Shown: piece by piece, positions 6,683 through 25,892 of the stretch
Numbering within the stretch: position 1 is the first letter of the stretch
How the letters are laid out: every line of letters begins with the position of its first letter
NCBI GenBank assembly: GCA_963819035.1
Contig: CAWFUU010000017.1
Location: 140,030-204,029, forward strand
Direction: 5' to 3'
DNA from: an uncultured Acidobacteriaceae bacterium
GTDB lineage: Bacteria; Acidobacteriota; Terriglobia; Terriglobales; Acidobacteriaceae
DNA: 64,000 nucleotides
Translations under genes and position numbers: made by a program
Notes under the pieces: model-generated
Told to the model about the DNA's origin: nothing
The model's input: only the letters and a program-made list of their open reading frames with translations
Database searches by the model: none

Positions 6683-6733
6683 GAACGCGGCTTCGCAAGC
6701 GATCCGCCTGCGTGGTTCGCTCCTTCCCGGAAC

Positions 6734-6964
6734 TCACCGCTTGCTTTGCGGGTGCAGAGCGGCCATCGCCTTTTCGTGATGTTCCTCGGTGTACCAGGTG
6801 GGCGCGTACTGCTCGAGCAGATCTTGCAACTCCGAAAGTACGCCCACCAGACGGGCGCGGTCCAACTCCGTTTCGGACTTGTAACTCAGGAGCTCAGAAG
6901 CGTCGGGAGAATTCTTGCTCTTCATCGTGCGATTTCCGTTTGATCCCATGAACGAAGTCATCAT
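6734..6964 (-). CDS. Small hypothetical protein (76 aa)
   Basis: ORF with AAGGAG 5 nt upstream of ATGATG. The sequence is non-repetitive and helix-like (ELDRARLVGVLSELQDLLEQYAPTWYTEEHHEKA). Confidence 0.45.
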   Translation of the reverse strand: MMTSFMGSNGNRTMKSKNSPDASELLSYKSETELDRARLVGVLSELQDLLEQYAPTWYTEEHHEKAMAALHPQSKR

Positions 6965-7284
6965 CGTCGCTCCTTACCGTTGCCCGCCGCGAATCAAGTC
7001 GTGCGCATATGGCGCATGGCTGCGCGAGTGGCCGACGAGGGTACTGTTCCTTTTATTTAACCCTGCTTGACGATGGCTGGCCGTAAAAACTTGTAACGGA
7101 GGTGTAAATTCGTTGTAAGTCTTACCGTCACAAATCTTTACAACTTGTGCGCAAGTTGCTGGAGAGCAAGTAACTCTTCGTTTCTTGCTTGCCGTTGCTC
7201 AAACAACTGGCGAGCCAGCAGGTCCTTCCGGTACCATCACACGTCGAAGCTTACTGCTGGAACGTTTGTGCTGCGAACTCTTGC

Positions 7285-8190
7285 ATGACATCTTTGAAGC
7301 CCCTGCCGATCCAACGTAGCATCAGACTGCGTGTTTCCGCCGTTGCCCTCGCACTCCTCGCCGGCCCCGGCCTTTTTGCCAAGAACGCGACCCAAGTCGT
7401 GGTGGTTCCGGTCGCAAACATGTATTCGGCCCCAACCGACAAGTCTGACGTCGTTTCACAGGCGATCTATGCCAGCAACGTGACTCTGCTGACGGCTCGC
7501 GGAGAATGGTCGAGGATCCAGACCGAAGACCACTACAAGGGCTGGACTCCCAGCCGCTACCTTCGCCTGGTTCAAAGCGGAGCCGGCTATGCCACGGCAG
7601 GACAGACTGTCCAGGTAGAAAGTCTGTTCGCCAACGTCTATAACGAGCCCGACGTCGCCCGCCACAAGCCCGTTATTACGATTCCATTCGAATCGCACCT
7701 TGAAGTCATCGCGGAAGGTAAGGGAAGCGACGAAGGCTGGCTGCAGGTTCGCCTGCCCGACAAACGTTCCGCGTGGATTCAATCCGGTGATGTGGTCTCC
7801 GACCTCAAGCCGCTAGCCATCCCGCAATCGATCGAACTCGCCAAACGCTTTCTCGGTCTGCCTTACCTGTGGGGCGGACGATCCACCTTCGGTTTCGACT
7901 GCTCCGGCTTTACCCAAATGCTGCTGCGCTCCCGTGGCGTCAATATGCCTCGTGATGCCGATCAGCAAGCCGCCTGGAAAGGTCTGACGCCAGTCGAGCG
8001 CAAGGATCTCCAACCTGGCGACCTCCTGTTCTTCGGCTCCGCGCCGGCAAAAATCACGCACACCGGCATGTACATCGGCGACGGCCAATTCATTCACGCT
8101 CCCACCAACGGCCATCCCGTAGTGCAAATCAGTCGCGTCGACGACACCCCCTGGGCGAAGCTTCTCGTAGGCTGCCGCCGCGCGAAATAA
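7285..8190 (+). CDS. NlpC/P60 (C40) cell-wall peptidase with SH3-like N-terminal domains
   Basis: Catalytic-Cys motif YLWGGRSTFGFDCSGFTQ and HTGMYIGDGQFIHAP. Signal peptide begins at ATG 7285 (MTSLKPLPIQRSIRLRVSAVALALLA). Confidence 0.85.
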   Translation: MTSLKPLPIQRSIRLRVSAVALALLAGPGLFAKNATQVVVVPVANMYSAPTDKSDVVSQAIYASNVTLLTARGEWSRIQTEDHYKGWTPSRYLRLVQSGAGYATAGQTVQVESLFANVYNEPDVARHKPVITIPFESHLEVIAEGKGSDEGWLQVRLPDKRSAWIQSGDVVSDLKPLAIPQSIELAKRFLGLPYLWGGRSTFGFDCSGFTQMLLRSRGVNMPRDADQQAAWKGLTPVERKDLQPGDLLFFGSAPAKITHTGMYIGDGQFIHAPTNGHPVVQISRVDDTPWAKLLVGCRRAK

Positions 8191-17515: not shown

Positions 17516-19960
17516 CTAGTGCCGTCCGCCGCCACCACCGTGTCCGCCGTGTCCGCCACGTCCGCCATCGCGCCCGCCACCGCGTCCGCCGCGTCCACGA
17601 CCGCGTCCGCCGCCTCCGGGACGCCCGCCGCCGCGTCCACCGCGATCACCGGTCCGTGGCCGATCGCCTGCGCCTGCGCCGGCGCTTACGTGCGGCGCGC
17701 CTTCGCGGTTAAAGTTGGGTTCGGCATCGGGCTCATCCGGAAAATCCCCGCCGCCTTCGATGACGACCGTGCCCGCCGGAACCGGCTCTCCCTCCGCCAC
17801 CGGCGCCTGGGCTGGAGCCTCGGCAACGGCCCCACCGCCCATCTTCGCCCGCTGCTCTTTCAGAATCGCTTTGCGTGAGAGGCGGATGCGGTTGCCTTCG
17901 ACGGCCAGCACCTTCACCAGTACCTGGTCGCCTTCTTTCAACTCATCGCGCACATCGGCAATGCGATGCTCCGCCACTTCGCTGATGTGCAGCAACCCGT
18001 CGGTCCCCGGCAGAATTTCGACGAACGCGCCGAAATCCGCCAGCCGCGTGACTTTGCCGAGGTAAGTCTTCCCGACCTCCGCCGTCGCCGTGATATCGCC
18101 GATCAGTTGCAGTGCCTTAGCAGCCGACGTCTGATCGCTCGACGCCACCTTGACCAGTCCGGAATCTTCCACGTCGATCTTCACTCCGGTCTGCTCGACG
18201 ATGCTGCGGATCATCTTCCCGCCCGGCCCAATCAGATCGCGAATCTTGTCGACCGGGATCTGCACCGTATAGAAGCGCGGAGCGTAATCGGAAATCTTCT
18301 CGCGCCCGGATGTAATCACTTCATCCATCTTGCCCAGGATGTGCAGCCGTCCACGCTGCGCCTGCGCCAGCGCCTCACGCATGATCTGCGCCGTAATGCC
18401 GGCGACTTTGATATCCATCTGCAGCGCCGTGATGCCATCCTTGGTCCCGGCAACCTTAAAGTCCATGTCGCCATAGTGATCTTCCGCTCCAGCAATGTCG
18501 GTCAGGATGGCATACTGCTCGCCCTCCTTCACCAGCCCCATCGCCACTCCCGCAACCGGAGCCTTCAACGGAACGCCCGCATCCATCAGGGCAATCGAAG
18601 CCCCGCAAACGGTAGCCATCGACGAAGATCCATTCGACTCCAGAATGTCAGAGACGACGCGCATGGCATAAGGCCATTTCTCTTCCGTTGGCAACACAGC
18701 CGAAACCGCCCGCTCGGCCAGCGCTCCATGCCCAATCTCACGCCGTCCAGCCCCCCGCAGAAATGCTACTTCTCCCACCGAAAACGGCGGAAAATTATAG
18801 TGCAGCATGAAGCGCTTTTTGGCTTCACCTTCGAAACCTTCGAGGCGCTGCATGTCGTCGCTGGTGCCGAGGGTGGTGGTGACCAGCGCTTGGGTTTCAC
18901 CGCGGGTGAAGATGGCGCTGCCGTGGGTGCGGGGCAGGACTCCGGCTTCGATCCAGATTTCGCGCACTTCGTCGAAGGCGCGGGCGTCGGGGCGGCGCTT
19001 GTGATTGATCACTTGCTCGCGGAAGATGCGTTCGCGGAGAGTCTCATAGTAGTGATCCAGTTTCTTCTTCGCTGCTTCGTCGTCTTTTTCACTTTCCGTC
19101 TTGGGAAGCTCGGCGGCGAGTTTCTTTTTGATGTCCTTGACCAGGGTGTAGCTTTCGGCCTTGGGATGTTTCTTGGTATCGAGGGCGTCGGAAAGTTCGG
19201 CTCCGATTTTGGTTTTGAGCGAGTTGTAGTACGCTTCGTCGAACGCAGGTGGCTCGACTTGCCGCTTAGGCTTGCCGACTTTGGCGCGGAGGTCGTTAAT
19301 CGCGGCGCAGATTTTCTTGATCTCGGTGTGCCCGAACTCGATGGCGTCGACGACGGTTTCTTCCTTCACTTCCTTCGCGCCGGATTCGATCATCACGATG
19401 CCGTCAGCCGTGCCGACCACCATGATGTTGACCAAGCTCTCGCGCATCTCGTTGTAAGTAGGGTTCACCAGGAACGCGCCGTTCACCAAACCGACGCGGA
19501 CTGCGCCGATGGGACCGAGGAAGGGAATATCGGAAAGAGTCAACGCACAGGAAGCGGCATTGATGCCGAGCACGTCGGGATCATTATCGGTATCGGCGGA
19601 GAGAACGAAAGCGATGACCTGGGTCTCGCACTTGAATCCCTCAGCAAACATGGGCCGGACGGGGCGGTCGATCTGGCGACTGGTGAGCACTTCGCGCTCG
19701 CTCATGCGGCCTTCGCGCTTGATGAAGCCGCCGGGGAAGCGTCCGCCGGCATAGGTGTACTCGCGATAGTCGACGGTGAGAGGGAAGAAGTCGATGCCTT
19801 CGCGGGGATCGGCGTTGGCGACGGCAGTGGCGAGAACAACGTTTTCGCCCAGGCGGACCACGGCTGCTCCGTGCGCCTGCTTGGCGAGCTTTCCGGTTTC
19901 AAATGAAATTTGTTTGCCGCCGGTGAGGTTTACGGTAATGCTTGTCGGTTCTGGTTTCAT
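17516..19960 (-). CDS. pnp: Polynucleotide phosphorylase with a ~108-aa Gly/Arg-rich C-terminal extension
   Basis: 814 aa with two RNase PH domains, KH and S1 (GKVTRLADFGAFVEILPGTDGLLHISE). The tail ends RGGRGGGRPGGGGRGRGRGGRGGGRDGGRGGHGGHGGGGGRH. Confidence 0.95.
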   Translation of the reverse strand: MKPEPTSITVNLTGGKQISFETGKLAKQAHGAAVVRLGENVVLATAVANADPREGIDFFPLTVDYREYTYAGGRFPGGFIKREGRMSEREVLTSRQIDRPVRPMFAEGFKCETQVIAFVLSADTDNDPDVLGINAASCALTLSDIPFLGPIGAVRVGLVNGAFLVNPTYNEMRESLVNIMVVGTADGIVMIESGAKEVKEETVVDAIEFGHTEIKKICAAINDLRAKVGKPKRQVEPPAFDEAYYNSLKTKIGAELSDALDTKKHPKAESYTLVKDIKKKLAAELPKTESEKDDEAAKKKLDHYYETLRERIFREQVINHKRRPDARAFDEVREIWIEAGVLPRTHGSAIFTRGETQALVTTTLGTSDDMQRLEGFEGEAKKRFMLHYNFPPFSVGEVAFLRGAGRREIGHGALAERAVSAVLPTEEKWPYAMRVVSDILESNGSSSMATVCGASIALMDAGVPLKAPVAGVAMGLVKEGEQYAILTDIAGAEDHYGDMDFKVAGTKDGITALQMDIKVAGITAQIMREALAQAQRGRLHILGKMDEVITSGREKISDYAPRFYTVQIPVDKIRDLIGPGGKMIRSIVEQTGVKIDVEDSGLVKVASSDQTSAAKALQLIGDITATAEVGKTYLGKVTRLADFGAFVEILPGTDGLLHISEVAEHRIADVRDELKEGDQVLVKVLAVEGNRIRLSRKAILKEQRAKMGGGAVAEAPAQAPVAEGEPVPAGTVVIEGGGDFPDEPDAEPNFNREGAPHVSAGAGAGDRPRTGDRGGRGGGRPGGGGRGRGRGGRGGGRDGGRGGHGGHGGGGGRH

Positions 19961-20748: not shown

Positions 20749-21042
20749 ATGGAGCCGGAAAACACCGCAATGAACATCGAAATTCGAGACTCCGCCCTGC
20801 AAGCACGGATTCAGAAGCAACTTGAAGCAACAGGCTCGGGAAGCGTGGAGGAGTTGCTTGCTCACTTACTGGAGACCCAAGAGGAACAGGATCGGTGGCT
20901 TCTGGAAAACCGGGAGGAGATCGATGCCAAAATTCGCCGCGGAATCGCGCAGCTTGACCGGGGCGAAGGCATTCCAGAAGACCAATGGGATGCCTATCTG
21001 AAGGCTCGCAAAAACAAGTCGGACTCCCCGGCGCTCCCATAG
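20749..21042 (+). CDS. ParD-like (RHH) type II antitoxin, orphan
   Basis: Pattern SGSVEELLAHLLETQEE...IDAKIRRGIAQLDRGEGIPED resembles ParD/COG3609 antitoxins. No intact toxin ORF follows. The start is ATG 20749 or 20770. Confidence 0.5.
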   Translation: MEPENTAMNIEIRDSALQARIQKQLEATGSGSVEELLAHLLETQEEQDRWLLENREEIDAKIRRGIAQLDRGEGIPEDQWDAYLKARKNKSDSPALP

Positions 21043-21212
21043 CATAGCGGGCAGAAGACCATCACTTTTGCAACGACGTGAGCCGGTGGCCCGGTTCGAA
21101 CACCCGCCAGAAAAACTGGGGAAGGTCCAGTCTGTCCCCGGGTTTCTCTTTAGCATCGTCAGAGAAATGTGTGGTCACTGATGCGTTCGAATGGCGGCCG
21201 GAAGTTGGGCTC

Positions 21213-21227
21213 GAGGGTGCCCCGTCC
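21213..21227. repeat. Solo copy of the GAGGGTGCCCCGTCC terminal motif of the 143-bp repeat
   Basis: The same 15-mer begins the elements at 23430 and 24548. A 13-nt version occurs at 8194-8206. Confidence 0.6.
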
Positions 21228-21287
21228 GTTCCAATGTGAGCCGTCAATGTCGTTGCGCCCTCCCCCTGCCTTTGGTATCTTGCGGTC

Positions 21288-22136
21288 GTGGACCTCCACG
21301 TTAATGCCAGCGACTTACAGCAGGAACTGGAGCAACTGCGGTCGGAGAACGCCCGGCTCAGGCAGGAAATAATTGAAAGTCGCAAGGACAGCACCCGGTA
21401 TCTCCAGAACGTGGCACACCAGCTCACTGCGCCCTTAAACGCCATTAAGTGGAACATCGAGGCGATCAAGGACGAGAAAATCCCGATCCCGCGCAAGAAG
21501 AACCTGCTTAGTTCCATCTACTCCCAGGGGACGATACTTGTTCACCTGATTAAGAACTTCAGCCTAATGTCCAATCTCGAAGCCGACCACGAGCTGGGAC
21601 AGTTCCGGGAAAAACCCGAGCGTGTGAGCCCGCTCCGCCTCGCCATAAATCTCGCGGGGGACTTTCAGCCTCAAGCTGCGGAGACCAGTAAGAAGATAGA
21701 TGTTGACATAGATTCGTTTGACAAGATTTTCGCCAGCAAACCGCTATTGGTAGTCAAGAATCTCGTTGCCCAGGCCCTCTCGAATCTCCTAGAGAACGCC
21801 ATCAAGTACTCCGACATCGGAACCACAATCAGAGTGCTGGCTGCCCAGGGGACGATAAGGGAGCGTAAGGCGATTTACCGCGGGATAGCGGTGATCAATA
21901 CTGGGCTTCCGGTGCTGCTCGACGAAGCGAAAAAACTTTCAGATCGAGGCTTCCGCGGCAAAGCGGCGCGGCAAAAGATCCCGGCGGGAACCGGAATTGG
22001 TCTCTATATCGCAAACAGGATCATGGAACTTCACGAGGGGCTAATCGTGGTCAAGCCTGACGGCAGCGAGACGCGAATAACTCTATTCTTCCCCGAGTTA
22101 CGTGTAGTCGAGCCGGCCGGCGTCGAGGAAGAATGA
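21288..22136 (+). CDS. Soluble, sensor-less histidine kinase (coiled coil + HisKA + HATPase_c)
   Basis: About 45 aa of coiled coil (LQQELEQLRSENARLRQEIIE), then H-box NVAHQLTAPLNAI, N-box LSNLLENAIKYS, SDRGFRG and GTGIGLYIANRIMELHEG. No TM segment or recognisable input domain. GTG start. Confidence 0.8.
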   Translation: MDLHVNASDLQQELEQLRSENARLRQEIIESRKDSTRYLQNVAHQLTAPLNAIKWNIEAIKDEKIPIPRKKNLLSSIYSQGTILVHLIKNFSLMSNLEADHELGQFREKPERVSPLRLAINLAGDFQPQAAETSKKIDVDIDSFDKIFASKPLLVVKNLVAQALSNLLENAIKYSDIGTTIRVLAAQGTIRERKAIYRGIAVINTGLPVLLDEAKKLSDRGFRGKAARQKIPAGTGIGLYIANRIMELHEGLIVVKPDGSETRITLFFPELRVVEPAGVEEE

Positions 22137-22547
22137 CAATCTTGCTAGTAGACGACGAGCCGAGCTATGTGGACGCGCTAAGTTGCCACGCTTGAATCCA
22201 ACGGAATCAAGTGCATCACGGCGAAGAATATGACCGAGGGGGTGAAGGTGCTGGAAACGCAGTATGCCGACGTGGCAGCAGTTGTCACGGACATAATGAT
22301 GCCGCCCGGCCCTTCTTTCTCGCACGTCAATGCCGACGAATGCGGTTTCGAATTCATAGAGCACGTGCAGCAGAACTGGCCGCGACTACCGATCGTTTGT
22401 CTTTCAGTAATTGCCGATCAAGCTAGGATACGCTTTCTCGCAAGACGAAGGGTTAAGTACCTTAGAAAGGGAGAAACCCCACTTTCCACGGCGGTCGAAG
22501 TGATTACCGCCGTCGCCGAAGGAAGAACAGGACGGCTGAGGTTTTGA
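22133..22547 (+). CDS. Stand-alone response-regulator receiver domain; frame broken near 22180
   Basis: ATG 22133 overlaps the kinase stop (ATGA) and gives MTILLVDDEPSYVDALS, then a stop. The +1 frame continues ATLESNGIKCITAKNMTEGVKVLETQYADVAAVVTDIMMP...VCLSV...YLRKG (ORF 22230-22547). All receiver signature residues are present. Confidence 0.65.
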
Positions 22548-23387
22548 ATGCGGGTTCTAATTGTCGAGGACGACCAGTTCTACTCCCAACGAATTCGGGA
22601 ACTTCTCATGGATCACGGAGTTGATTCCACGATCGTGGGGAGTGCGCAAGAGGCAGTTGTTTTCGATCTAGCTCAGATCGACGCCGCTGTGGTCGACATT
22701 ATGCTGCCGAACGACCCGGGTGCATCGAGCATCACCGCGCAGGAGAGTAGGGGCGGCTTTATGACGGGCGTTGCCATAGCGCGGAGACTTCAAAAGAAGA
22801 AGTCTTCACTTCGGATTGTGATGCTGTCGTCCGACGTGACCAATATTGAGGCCGAGAACTGGGCCTCGCAGCAATCTATCCCCTTCATCCCCAAACATAC
22901 AGGAAGTGACGCGCTGTTAGGCGCGCTGCGTAAGCTGGCGATCATTTCGGGCCCACGAGCGCCACTCGCGTTCATAGTGCACGGTCACGACTCAGCCTCT
23001 GTTTTGGAGCTGAAGAACTACATACAGAACATACTTCACTGGCAGGAGCCTGTTGTTCTTCGGGAGCAGCCCAGCCTAGGGAAGACTCTCATCGAAAAGT
23101 TTGAGACGTTCGCACGCAAAGTCGACTGTGTTTTCGTCCTGCTCACGCCAGACGACAACGTCGTCCCGAGCGGCACCGATGATGAAAAGAGGCGCTCCCG
23201 TCAAAACGTCATTTTCGAGCTTGGCTTTTTTTACGCCTCCCTAGAGCGAAGGTCGGGGCGTGTACTCCTGCTGCACAAGGGAGAGCTCGAACTACCCTCG
23301 GACATATCGGGAATTGTCTGGATCGACATCAGCGGCGGAATAACAGCAGCGGGCGAGGATATCCGGAAAGAAGTGGCCGACGTGTGA
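22548..23387 (+). CDS. Response-regulator receiver fused to a CAP12/PycTIR-type TIR-like effector domain (PF10137/COG4271-like)
   Basis: ATG directly abuts the upstream TGA. Receiver motifs are VLIVEDD, AAVVDIMLP, VMLSS and FIPKH. The C-terminal half carries AFIVHGHD, VVLREQPSLGKTLIEKFE, VFVLLTPDD, SRQNVIFELGFF and ELPSDISGIVW, which are the hallmark blocks of the TIR-like family. Confidence 0.8.
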   Translation: MRVLIVEDDQFYSQRIRELLMDHGVDSTIVGSAQEAVVFDLAQIDAAVVDIMLPNDPGASSITAQESRGGFMTGVAIARRLQKKKSSLRIVMLSSDVTNIEAENWASQQSIPFIPKHTGSDALLGALRKLAIISGPRAPLAFIVHGHDSASVLELKNYIQNILHWQEPVVLREQPSLGKTLIEKFETFARKVDCVFVLLTPDDNVVPSGTDDEKRRSRQNVIFELGFFYASLERRSGRVLLLHKGELELPSDISGIVWIDISGGITAAGEDIRKEVADV

Positions 23388-23429
23388 ACGGGCAGCGGCG
23401 GGTGGCCCATGCTAGCCATCCCTGCTGTT

Positions 23430-23572
23430 GAGGGTGCCCCGTCCAAGCTTCGCTTGGGTGGGGATTTTGATCCGCATCGGGTCTGTGGCTGTGGCCGGAT
23501 TCGGAGAAGGAGTCAGAGGAAGTCAGAATCCCCACCCTATCCGCAAAGAACACGGATAAGGATGGGGCACCC
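23430..23572 (+). repeat. 143-bp MITE-like structured repeat, copy A
   Basis: 138/143 identical to 24548-24690. Terminal inverted repeat GGGTGCCCCGTCC...GGATGGGGCACCC, with internal complementary blocks GGGTGGGGA/TCCCCACCC and TATCCG/CGGATA. Confidence 0.85.
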
Positions 23573-23627
23573 AGCTCTATCAGAAAAGAACGCAGAGAAG
23601 ATGGGGAACCGGGCTCGTCCATGCCAA

Positions 23628-23732: not shown

Positions 23733-24419
23733 TCAGGAATCTTCGTCTTCGTCCTTCATCGCGCTCTTGAATCCGCCGATCATGCCTTCCCGGAAGGCCT
23801 TCAGCATCTTAAGCAGGCGGAATTCCACTTTGGTGACGGTGCCTCCCCGCGTGTCGGACTTCTCATACGACCAGAACATTGCCTTCAGCTTCTTCGACAC
23901 AGTGCGCCCTTCCTTCGTCTTCTGCGTGAAGCTCGTCGGTACCAGGCCCACTACGGAGATAAGCACTCCACCAGCCAGAATCTCCAACGGATCTTCGATC
24001 AGCCCTTTCCTAAGCAGTGATTTATATGACGATTCGGCGGCCGCGACGAGTTGGTCCGTAGTGGTATTCAGTCGCAGGTTAAGAACCGCCTGTCCCAGCG
24101 CATCCGGATAAGGAAGAGATCCATGCGACGCCTTGGTTTCTTTCTCATATTCGGTTCGGGGAAACTCTTGGTAGAACTCTTTGATCTTAGGGTTCTTCCC
24201 AACTGCCGCCCGAACAACGTCCGCGACATCGATGTGTGGATGATATTCCGCCACATGCGCCAGCAGAGTGCCCCAGACGTAAGCCTCTTTTGTAGTGACC
24301 GTCACCGCCCAGTTCGCGGAATCGACCTTGCCCTTTGGATCGTTCGACAGTTCGAGGACCGCCATGTCCGCCAGGCTCATGCGCGTGAGCTTCCTCATAA
24401 CTGCCTTCTTCGCTCTCAT
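23733..24419 (-). CDS. Hypothetical protein (229 aa), no recognisable family
   Basis: C-terminal part of ORF 23733-25082. Start placed at ATG 24419 (MRAKKAVMRKL), 6 nt after GGAG. Non-repetitive with lower GC. The portion upstream of 24419 runs through repeat copy B and is low-complexity. Confidence 0.6.
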   Translation of the reverse strand: MRAKKAVMRKLTRMSLADMAVLELSNDPKGKVDSANWAVTVTTKEAYVWGTLLAHVAEYHPHIDVADVVRAAVGKNPKIKEFYQEFPRTEYEKETKASHGSLPYPDALGQAVLNLRLNTTTDQLVAAAESSYKSLLRKGLIEDPLEILAGGVLISVVGLVPTSFTQKTKEGRTVSKKLKAMFWSYEKSDTRGGTVTKVEFRLLKMLKAFREGMIGGFKSAMKDEDEDS

Positions 24420-24547
24420 ATGGAACTCCTGTGCGGAATGTCCCGCAGTGGGAAATATTATTCCCGCCCACACTGGAAGGTGAAGAAGATCGCAAAATCG
24501 TTTCTCGGGTGCGGCGTGGCCCATCCCCGAAGGCCATTCTTGGTCTT

Positions 24548-24690
24548 GAGGGTGCCCCGTCCAAGCTTCGCTTGGGTGGGGGTTTTGATCCGGATCGGGT
24601 CTGTGGCTGCGGCTGGATTCGGAGAAGGAGTCAGAGGAAGTCAGAATCCCCACCCTATCCGCAAAGAACGCGGATAAGGATGGGGCACCC
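24548..24690 (+). repeat. 143-bp MITE-like structured repeat, copy B
   Basis: Direct-orientation copy of 23430-23572 with 5 mismatches. Confidence 0.85.
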
Positions 24691-24750
24691 GCACGGTGGG
24701 AGAAAACAGATTCCTCCCTTTGGTCGGAATGACAAGACCCTTGATTTTCG

Positions 24751-25334
24751 TTATCGCGGGCGGCGGAGGAGGTGCCAGGCTTGGCGGTACTGGTCGTAGA
24801 GGCCGGGGCGGTGGTCCTTTTTCCTGCGGAACAGGAGGCTGGTGCCGCGGACGGCTCGGACGGGGATGATGTACCAGGTGTCTTCGGGGATGATGTAGGC
24901 GGCGATGAAGTCGATTTCGCTGGAGAGGTAGGGGACGGCGCGCCCTCCGCTGCGGTGGTGGCCGTTGATGCGGTAGAGGCCGTTGAGGAGTTGGGTGGAA
25001 CATTTGACCTGGACGCGGTAGAGAGGCGGACAGGGGATGCGCGCCAAGCGCGCGTTCTTGCCTGGCAAAGAACGCGAGGCATCGCGCGGCACGCCCAGGT
25101 ACCTTCGGCTCCGCCTCAGGGCAGGCTCTTCGTCGGGCAAGGCGCGCTCCTCAGGATGACGAGGTTTGTGGGTGAGGTCGCGGGCGTCGAGGATGAAGTC
25201 GTAGCGTTCGCTGTCGCCGTAGGGTTTGGAGACGCCGAAGCCAAGGCGGGTGGCGATGAGGAGGAGGACGAGTTCGGCGAGCTCGCCGCGGCGCTTGGTG
25301 TTGCGTTCCCGGCGGAGGGAATGGACTGGCGGGA
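24751..25334 (-). pseudogene. PD-(D/E)XK endonuclease (group I intron-associated type, PDDEXK_5-like), start codon missing
   Basis: Reverse-strand frame reads ...SLRRERNTKRRGELAELVLLLIATRLGFGVSKPYGDSERYDFILD...RVQVKC...SEIDFIAAYIIPEDTWYIIPV...YRQAWHLL. No ATG/GTG/TTG lies between the upstream stop (25378-25380) and NTKRRGE. A palindromic insert (cgcgttctttgccaggcaagaacgcg) precedes RVQVK. Confidence 0.6.
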
Positions 25335-25340
25335 CAGTTC

Positions 25341-25892
25341 TTGCATCCCGCTCCCGGCGATCTGCTCCATCTCGACATCAAGGGCATGACCCGCTATCAG
25401 CAGGTCTCCATTCGCGGCGACGGTCGTCGCCGCGGTCGCCCTCAGTTCGCTGGCTGGCAGGCTCTGCACGTCGCCATCGACGATCACTCCCGCCTCGCCT
25501 TCTCCCGCATGCTGCCCAATCAGCAAAGCGAAACCGCCATCGCCTTCCTGCGCGCCGCCGTCGCCTTCTACGCCCTGCACGGCATCTCCATTCGCCGCCT
25601 GCTCACCGATAACGGCTCCTGCTATCGCTCCCGACAGTTCCGCGCCGCCTGCCTTCAACTCGGCATCCAGCACCGCTTCACCCGTCCCTACACTCCGCGC
25701 ACCAACGGCAAAGCGGAACGCTTCATCCAAACCGCCCTACGCGAGTGGGCCTATGTTCGCCACTACCTCAACTCGGAGGAACGCGATCAGCAGCTCTCGC
25801 CTTGGCTGGAGCATTACAACTTCCACCGTCCGCATGGTAGTCTCGGTTACGCTCCGCCCATTAGCCGGGCTCCCGTGGGTATAACGTCTTGA
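25341..25892 (+). mobile_element. IS481-family (rve/DDE) transposase fragment lacking the N-terminal HTH third
   Basis: PGDLLHLDIKGM...WQALHVAIDDHSRLAF...LTDNGSCYRS...RPYTPRTNGKAERFIQTALREWAY...HYNFHRPHGSLGYAPPISR. Homology begins abruptly at about 25335. No N-terminal part is present in any frame. Confidence 0.75.

Follow-up and report, generated by a model that had tools for sequence, protein, structure and literature searches.

The closest described analogue of the locus reported here is Detocs, a three-gene anti-phage operon encoding DtcA, DtcB and DtcC (Rousset et al. 2023, 10.1101/2023.01.24.525353). DtcA combines a tetratricopeptide repeat (TPR) sensor with a histidine kinase, DtcB is a lone receiver described as a 'buffer', and DtcC joins a receiver to an ATP nucleosidase, the place of which is taken in about 20% of the operons by a restriction endonuclease, an OLD-like TOPRIM nuclease or a transmembrane hydrolase; the His of DtcA and the Asp of DtcC are needed for defence, whilst an Asp-to-Ala substitution in DtcB is toxic (10.1101/2023.01.24.525353). 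Also comparable are two NAD+ hydrolase effectors, Cap12 (TIR-STING), from the cyclic oligonucleotide-based antiphage signalling systems (CBASS), and PycTIR, from the pyrimidine cyclase systems for antiphage resistance (Pycsar), in which a TIR-like domain is gated by a regulatory domain at its N or C terminus. The present locus is a cassette of three genes at 21288-23387 on the + strand of a 64,000 nt stretch of DNA from an uncultured Acidobacteriaceae bacterium; this whole stretch is referred to as the window, and all coordinates are positions within it. The cassette encodes a histidine kinase-like protein with no input domain, a stand-alone receiver, and a receiver fused to a TIR-like domain of the Pfam family PF10137. 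Judged from sequence comparisons, it is best described as a Detocs-like phosphotransfer module composed of non-orthologous parts, with a TIR-like effector. An earlier note on this DNA, made from the sequence alone, could not say whether such an architecture had been described: an analogue does exist in Detocs, whilst a search of the papers available found no description of the receiver-TIR cassette itself; those of the Aravind group mention receivers as effectors in STAND and ternary systems, but do not mention the cassette.

The resemblance to Detocs lies in the combination of a kinase, a lone receiver and a receiver-effector, encoded in the same order by overlapping genes in the arrangement designated type A below (as compared with the Detocs loci L087-L089), and in the presence of an effector in place of the usual DNA-binding domain. 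In both systems, each receiver also has an insertion after the phospho-Asp: the distance from this residue to the conserved Ser/Thr, which is 27-29 in CheY, Spo0F and PhoB, is 37 and 43 in the two receivers of the cassette, and the Asp-to-Thr distance is 42 in DtcB and 35-36 in DtcC (sequences from Table S1 of 10.1101/2023.01.24.525353). By analogy, the lone receiver may serve as a phosphate buffer; the phosphate-sink design suggested in the earlier note agrees with what has been proposed from experiments on DtcB.

However, the DtcA proteins are 944-984 aa long with an N-terminal TPR sensor, compared with a 282 aa sensor-less HisKA/HATPase kinase in the cassette; the core of these kinases has diverged to the point that their sole Pfam record is PF27260 (Y4jQ), and a hidden Markov model (HMM) of the cassette kinase family scores at most 1.5 bits against three of them. 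The receivers of the cassette match the PADLOC Detocs profiles with E values of 1e-3 (PDC-M60B) and 0.015 and 0.009 (PDC-M60C), as against 1e-17 to 1e-64 for true DtcB and DtcC proteins, and no match to the M60A profile was found in the cassette even at E values up to 10. The receiver family HMMs likewise do not favour DtcB or DtcC above PhoB and Spo0F. The effectors listed for Detocs are PNP, restriction endonuclease, OLD-like TOPRIM and transmembrane hydrolase; 'TIR' is absent from the supplementary tables, including Table S5, and Acidobacteria appear in these tables solely in a pAgo entry, outside Table S5. Membership of Detocs was therefore rejected at the sequence level, the kinase being unrelated, the PDC-M60B and C scores weak and the M60A match missing. 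As the Pfam records of the DtcA proteins themselves (L087:1617-4571, L088:1697-4558 and L089:1719-4553) hold PF27260 without HisKA or HATPase_c, standard two-component searches would miss DtcA.

Proteins encoded by the cassette

The features of the cassette are given below with the evidence for each; L007, an Acidobacteriaceae metagenome-assembled genome (MAG), carries its closest relative, at 96-98% nucleotide identity.

21288-22136, + strand: input-less cytoplasmic histidine kinase, 282 aa, GTG start (Pfam, alignments, hydropathy)
22133-22547, + strand: gene for the stand-alone receiver, with a +1 frameshift inside (open reading frame list, translation, homologue alignment)
22182, + strand: extra G, the cause of the receiver frameshift (blastn against L007)
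22548-22970, + strand: receiver domain of the fusion protein, residues 1-141 (Pfam, alignment, AlphaFold2, Foldseek)
22971-23387, + strand: PF10137 (Cap12/PycTIR-type) TIR-like domain of the fusion protein, residues 142-279 (Pfam, PADLOC, PDB sequence matches, Foldseek)
21178-23407, + strand: unit at about 96% nucleotide identity with L007 (blastn)

The outer two genes are intact open reading frames (ORFs) on the + strand (21288-22136 and 22548-23387), both in the ORF listing and on direct reading of 21100-23600. The junctions are as originally quoted, with an ATGA at 22133-22136 shared by the kinase and receiver genes and a TGA directly followed by an ATG, at 22545-22550, between the receiver and the fusion.

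The fusion protein has 279 aa, of which residues 3-127 match the receiver family PF00072 (E 8e-9) and residues 142-261 match PF10137, CAP12-PCTIR_TIR (E 2.8e-29; 102 bits against a gathering score of 24.7). The joining of these two domains was a central claim of the earlier note, and all the motifs it quoted are present. The receiver has the acidic residues E7-D8-D9, the phospho-acceptor Asp50, Ser93 and Lys116, each corresponding to an invariant column in a 21-sequence alignment. In the C-terminal half, Glu224, within RQNVIFELGFF, is invariant among 21 homologues with 55-81% identity to the window protein, as are the FIVHGHD, TPD and LPSD motifs. A profile of these homologues had Cap12 (9lmq, 7un8) and PycTIR (8jsj) among its matches to solved structures, and in pairwise comparisons RQNVIFELGFF aligns with RDNVVFEFGLF of Cap12 and RDNVHLEFGIS of PycTIR; the conserved Glu of this motif is one that, from the TIR-STING literature, we take to be catalytic in Cap12. 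An AlphaFold2 model of the whole protein (mean predicted local distance difference test score, pLDDT, 86.5) has a TIR-like flavodoxin fold in this half, matched by Foldseek to TIR-STING (9lmq_B; E 1.5e-5, 152 columns, root mean square deviation 4.1), whilst the N-terminal half matches receiver domains. Structures of TIR-STING in complex with c-di-GMP, and of its fiber, have been solved (9lmq, 9lmr).

Hence the domain has the Pfam family, fold and Glu motif of Cap12 and PycTIR, but its gate is a phospho-receiver rather than a cyclic-nucleotide sensor and the cassette includes no cyclase gene. A place within Cap12 or PycTIR proper was rejected, as the protein reaches 23-27 bits with the NCBIfam Cap12 equivalogs, for which the cut-off is 450, and the N-terminal domain is a receiver. 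The best PADLOC matches to the C-terminal domain were to PDC-S35 (1.4e-41), the CBASS TIR effector (4e-12) and PycTIR (3.5e-8). PDC-S35 is a single-gene defence candidate, positions 121-238 of which correspond to residues 141-263 of the fusion; only the TIR-like half is matched, the N-terminal half of PDC-S35 not being a receiver, and neither a kinase nor a lone receiver accompanies it.

In the kinase, Pfam matched HisKA (residues 37-99, E 2.5e-7) and HATPase_c (residues 159-270, E 1.3e-12), corresponding to dimerisation and histidine phosphotransfer (DHp) and catalytic and ATP-binding (CA) domains that follow a coiled-coil-like N-terminal segment of about 35 aa. His44, within VAHQLTAPL, is the phospho-acceptor and is invariant across the alignments of the kinase family. 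Pfam recognised no domain N-terminal of the H-box, and no hydrophobic segment was found (maximum 19-residue Kyte-Doolittle mean 1.18), in keeping with the original description of a kinase devoid of transmembrane segment or known input domain.

Both receivers retain the canonical acidic pair, phospho-Asp, Ser/Thr and Lys at all loci examined, including the stand-alone receiver of the window once one base is removed. In the fusion, the insertion after the phospho-Asp is a 14-residue extension of the beta3-alpha3 loop (residues ~55-72), for which the AlphaFold2 model has a pair of short helices, in a region where the pLDDT exceeds 90; the reconstructed stand-alone receiver, which keeps its Asp-Asp pair, phospho-Asp, Ser and Lys, has one of 8-9 residues. 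The inserts on which the earlier note based its view that the receivers are paralogues are thus present in both, and the two proteins do look paralogous, although the sizes are about 8-9 and 14 residues and not the 15-20 it gave.

Distribution, mobility and the split receiver gene

The fusion belongs to a family of 1040 clusters at 90% identity (E <= 1e-5). Nearly all of the best 120 are about 280 aa long with both domains, and the only source labels among them are 'TIR domain-containing protein', 'predicted nucleotide-binding protein' and 'CheY-like chemotaxis protein'. At the 50% identity level there are 265 representatives (E <= 1e-30), with ~95 of the best 150 aligning over their full length, and 527 relatives came from a scan limited to one genome for each species. 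Profiles from the three window-type proteins were used to survey the best 80 loci in the one-genome-per-species contigs, about 57 of which carry a receiver-TIR fusion. Two arrangements include all three genes. In type A, that of the window's clade, the order is kinase-receiver-fusion; its 22 loci (47-96% identity), including one locus in which the fusion gene is split and another that insertion sequence (IS) elements disrupt, are spread over Acidobacteriota, Verrucomicrobiota, Planctomycetota, Nitrospirota, Desulfobacterota and Dormibacterota. In type B, the order is fusion-kinase-receiver; its 15 loci, at ~40-44% identity, are from Alpha- and Gammaproteobacteria, Chloroflexota, Planctomycetota, Verrucomicrobiota and Acidobacteriota. 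The gene order therefore varies whilst the composition is constant, and the module is present in at least 38 genomes from around ten phyla. These loci also answer positively the earlier question of whether a kinase is a conserved neighbour of such fusions.

When the flanking ORFs of the window and the 22 type A and 15 type B loci were clustered, only the three cassette genes were common between loci, the remaining clusters being antisense shadows inside the cassette; neither a conserved fourth gene nor an upstream kinase travels with it. Between the window and L007, nucleotide identity of about 96% is limited to 21178-23407 and the surroundings are unrelated, with no similarity detected outside this interval in the 16.8 kb of L007 compared. 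The GC content of the cassette (54-56%) differs from that of its flanks (58-62%). Taken together, the boundaries of identity, the contrast in GC content and the sharing of only three genes indicate that the cassette is one mobile, self-sufficient unit. Integrases or transposases are found near the cassette in L003 (an integrase and transposases) and L001, and L006 has GmrSD and a methyltransferase nearby, so that individual loci do have a mobile or defence-like setting.

The receiver-TIR pair also occurs in other combinations. P0320 (719 aa) is an NB-ARC(STAND)-REC-TIR protein, an architecture typical of conflict systems; P0352 and P0357 (420-427 aa) are REC-REC-TIR proteins, joining both receivers in one chain; and P0305 (434 aa) has the order PTS-HPr-REC-TIR, where PTS is the phosphotransferase system, suggesting input from a His-phosphocarrier. 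A sister clade of the fusion, type C (L039, L040, L041, L046, L049 and L057; ~42% identity), lies behind large kinases in which an ETR1_N membrane domain, resembling that of ethylene receptors, and PAS domains accompany HisKA and HATPase domains with canonical SHELRTPL and DxGxG motifs. A canonical, insert-less lone receiver follows, and the site, which adjoins uvrC, is conserved. These loci (e.g. L039:5672-8843), found in Acidobacteriaceae and Bryobacteraceae, raise the possibility that an input linked to ethylene or copper feeds a TIR-like output. In L060, a CHASE3-PAS hybrid kinase is upstream.

In the window, the stand-alone receiver is not the single ORF that had been assumed. The frame from the ATG at 22133 reads MTILLVDDEPSYVDALSCHA and ends after 20 codons at the TGA at 22193-22195, with the rest of the receiver encoded in another frame, 22182-22547, which ends at the TGA at 22545-22547. 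Deleting one base yields a 137 aa receiver that aligns from end to end with intact 138 aa homologues at 66% identity. The blastn alignment with L007, the copy in which is 98.6% identical across the receiver stretch, places GCGCTAAGTTGCC against GCGCTAA-TTGCC, such that exactly one G, at 22182, is missing from L007. This G is outside any homopolymer run. Programmed frameshifting was rejected, as the receiver is encoded in a single frame in 20 of the 22 type A loci and the extra G is lacking from L007; the base could be either a genuine mutation or an assembly error. Unless it is the latter, the copy in the window is defective or deregulated.

It is hence possible, though on balance doubtful, that the cassette is a decaying, non-functional remnant in this genome. 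Besides the frameshift at 22182, such decay is suggested by the repeat elements and IS remnant nearby in the window and by the state of L007, in which the same gene contains two IS insertions, after the equivalents of window positions 22149 and 22426, and the kinase gene has a 2 nt deletion. These IS elements are of the DDE_3/HTH_23 type and ~1.2 kb each (L007:5250-6410 and 6692-7875), in a receiver gene of 417 bp. Conversely, the kinase and fusion ORFs are intact in the window, as is the fusion gene of L007, and the fusion has been under purifying selection, the comparison between these two copies giving a dN/dS of 0.23. The receiver genes differ by five synonymous and no non-synonymous changes, which indicates that the damage is recent. 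It may also be that the extra base is an assembly error, split cassette genes being found in related MAGs as well (L045 and L082). An intact homologue, such as the cassettes at L003:4755-6858 and L006:4753-6849, is better suited to follow-up than the copy in the window.

Proposed phosphotransfer and the altered kinase core

We think it somewhat probable that the cassette is a mobile three-protein phosphotransfer module with a TIR-like, nicotinamide adenine dinucleotide (NAD+)-consuming enzyme as its output, in place of a transcription factor. The soluble, input-less HisKA-type kinase would carry phosphate on His44, from which it would pass to Asp50 of the receiver-TIR protein; phosphorylation of Asp50 would then lead to receiver-mediated dimerisation or oligomerisation, bringing the TIR-like domains together and permitting NAD+ hydrolysis via Glu224, with growth arrest or cell death as the predicted result. 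In TIR-domain NAD+ hydrolases such as TIR-STING, it is oligomerisation that assembles the active site. The paralogous lone receiver may compete for phosphoryl groups, either as a sink or buffer in the manner of DtcB or as a relay partner, and thereby set the threshold for activation. The trigger might be phage infection or another stress, perhaps sensed by the kinase's unusual nucleotide pocket or its coiled coil. That no conserved fourth gene is present to read a TIR-made signal favours the TIR-like domain being the terminal effector.

If the module works as proposed, it would be a second, independently assembled family of two-component type with a cell-arresting enzyme as output, and the first in which a TIR-like NAD+-consuming effector is gated by Asp phosphorylation. 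It would also provide a test of whether a lone 'buffer' receiver generally acts as a safeguard where response regulators are toxic, of whether the insertion after the phospho-Asp, also seen in Detocs, is a hallmark that insulates such regulators from other kinases, and of how a sensor-less kinase with an altered nucleotide pocket comes to be triggered. Members of the family are frequent in the soil phyla Acidobacteriota, Planctomycetota and Verrucomicrobiota, in which few defence or dormancy systems have been characterised.

The most intriguing detail of the cassette, in our view, lies outside what the earlier note reported, and concerns the kinase core. All type A and type B kinases are short (reading frames of 257-340 codons, stop to stop), and they share a set of unusual residues. 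The window kinase has HQLTAPL as its H-box and INTGLPV as its G1 box, the latter aligning with ISDQGLGI of VicK and VEDNGIGI of HK853, two kinases of solved structure, with Asn204 in place of the G1 Asp. The H-box reads HQ(L/I)xAPL in 34 of 35 type A and B kinases, with Gln instead of an acidic residue at His+1 and Ala instead of Thr or Asn at His+4, and the G1 box reads (S/N)xG(L/I)P in all 36, compared with DxGxG elsewhere. In contrast, the N-box (SNLLENAIKYS), the F-box and the G2 box (GTGIGL) are intact and strongly conserved across phyla. Of the features of a classical HisKA kinase, the HisKA and HATPase_c domains and the His are thus present, whilst the H-(E/D)-x-x-(T/N) H-box and the DxGxG G1 box are not. 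In HisKA kinases and GHKL ATPases, the residues that have been replaced normally serve autophosphorylation, phosphatase activity and adenine recognition. Hence the identification as a histidine kinase is upheld with respect to domain assignment, but the protein is not a standard enzyme of this type: it may be a weak or differently specific kinase, or else a phosphotransferase resembling Spo0B or ChpT.

The last of these would make the cassette a phosphorelay, with phosphate from an unlinked kinase or from acetyl phosphate passing from the lone receiver to His44 and on to the receiver-TIR protein; we regard this as improbable. A lone receiver, an input-less histidine kinase-like protein and a receiver-effector make up the core of the Bacillus Spo0F-Spo0B-Spo0A relay, which is also the composition of the cassette, albeit with a TIR-like enzyme as output. 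The family-wide loss of residues for autophosphorylation and adenine recognition (Gln at His+1; Ser or Asn for the G1 Asp in 36 of 36) and of the phosphatase residue (Ala at His+4) is in line with such a role. A relay would moreover explain why the lone receiver is broken in both the window and L007: a system deprived of a relay step falls silent rather than being unleashed, which fits this being the gene that is knocked out. However, the conservation of the N, F and G2 motifs, which in Spo0B and ChpT have degenerated, argues for a working nucleotide pocket, and the absence of a linked upstream kinase travelling with the cassette is awkward for a module that moves between phyla. A further idea, to which we would give equally little weight, is that of an unusual trigger: either the CA domain is itself the sensor, using or responding to a non-adenine nucleotide or to a change in the nucleotide pool, or the protein is solely a phosphotransferase, part of a new mobile relay by which an NADase is armed. 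In either case, CA-domain sensing or a phosphotransfer relay would be an undescribed way of triggering an immune or suicide effector.

Returning to a kinase-driven module with an NAD+-consuming output, several observations weigh against it. A kinase without the acidic His+1, the Thr or Asn at His+4 and the G1 Asp is not assured of ATP-dependent autophosphorylation. The toxicity in Detocs is that of a DtcB mutated at its Asp; were absence of the lone receiver just as harmful, a model in which it serves purely as a buffer would not predict its gene to be broken in both the window and L007. The type C loci couple the same fusion to ETR1_N-PAS sensor kinases by uvrC, which resembles ordinary signalling. 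Among the 131 proteins encoded closest to the type A and B cassettes, most are of housekeeping function (e.g. enolase, phosphoglycerate mutase and a tRNA methyltransferase), and about five are IS proteins. The cassette was not found in the phage collection or in the PLSDB plasmids, in the latter of which the best full-length-like match (Mixta) has no kinase or receiver neighbours, and it is nearly absent from the viral contigs of IMG/VR, which had one full-length fusion without a kinase.

The abortive-infection reading offered in the earlier note accordingly lacks a strong association with defence islands among these 131 flanking proteins. Matches to defence profiles in the two nearest flanking genes of 36 loci, a survey without a matched control, were sporadic (BrxA, a type IIG restriction-modification system, DrmD, MADS and RtcR). 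The NB-ARC fusion, P0320, represents a conflict-type use of the receiver-TIR module. A role in defence is plausible; that the natural role is specifically anti-phage is a tentative suggestion, one we would hold a little less readily than its opposite. Outside the cassette, the bare PF10137 domain is frequent: 1146 plasmid records, the majority from Klebsiella and E. coli and roughly half conjugative, carry it under the label 'nucleotide-binding protein', and it also occurs in P2-like phages. Three E. coli phage genomes (36-43 kb) have it with the annotation 'TIR-like domain-containing protein'.

The module might alternatively function in ordinary, non-immune signalling, with the receiver-TIR protein acting as a housekeeping regulator that adjusts NAD+ or makes an NAD-derived signal when environmental or metabolic cues call for it, in dormancy or stress for instance, and with the kinase plugged into a host network. 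We consider this unlikely, if somewhat less so than a relay. The type C loci, with their canonical sensor kinases, lone receiver and conserved flanks including uvrC, speak for it, as does the CHASE3-PAS hybrid kinase upstream in L060; the flanks of type A loci are mostly metabolic or housekeeping genes, the window cassette itself adjoining rpsO-pnp, and the HPr-REC-TIR protein P0305 hints at a link to carbon metabolism or the PTS. Yet the window's clade has neither a conserved genomic address nor a sensor domain, the unit moves between phyla and no conserved partner is present to read a signal. Furthermore, the members of PF10137 with a named function, Cap12 and PycTIR (Pfam and PDB names), are immune effectors, and the fusion to NB-ARC in P0320 also points away from a housekeeping role.

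What the survey establishes directly is the domain composition of the cassette, the conservation of its catalytic and phospho-acceptor residues, the obligatory co-occurrence of its three genes and their mobility.

Repeats and neighbouring genes in the window

One further feature was recorded immediately downstream of the cassette.

23437-23463, + strand: terminator-like hairpin with a 12 bp stem and then a T-rich tail (consensus scan; a pattern match only)

This hairpin lies 50 nt past the last stop codon and within a repeat element; the promoter and terminator scans as a whole gave numbers of matches at the level expected by chance. The element is a hairpin-bearing direct repeat of 158 nt, the two copies of which (23415-23572 and 24533-24690) are 94% identical. 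Its 15 nt core, GAGGGTGCCCCGTCC, is also found at 21213-21227, just upstream of the cassette, giving three copies (21213, 23430 and 24548), all on the + strand, where 0.01 would be expected by chance. The left copy, at 21213, has only a 15-17 nt core in common with the others. The motif is not claimed as a transposition signature of the cassette ends, as it belongs to a family of repeats in this region, the third copy of which is at 24548.

A 97 aa ORF located between the cassette and rpsO (20749-21042) has a weak match to CcdA-like antitoxins (E 0.0057, below the cut-off), for which no toxin partner was seen. For a 449 aa ORF on the - strand (23733-25082), Pfam, NCBIfam and PADLOC gave no family match; its N-terminal part, which is of low complexity (rich in Pro, Ser, Thr and Ala), extends into the repeat element, so that a shorter true gene is probable. 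Further downstream of the cassette, a transposase fragment with an rve and rve_3 integrase core (25341-25892) lies in a GC-rich stretch (63-66% at 24500-25700). On the other side, the polynucleotide phosphorylase gene (17516-19960, - strand) encodes a Gly/Arg-rich, RGG-like C-terminal tail of about 80 residues (17516-17760).

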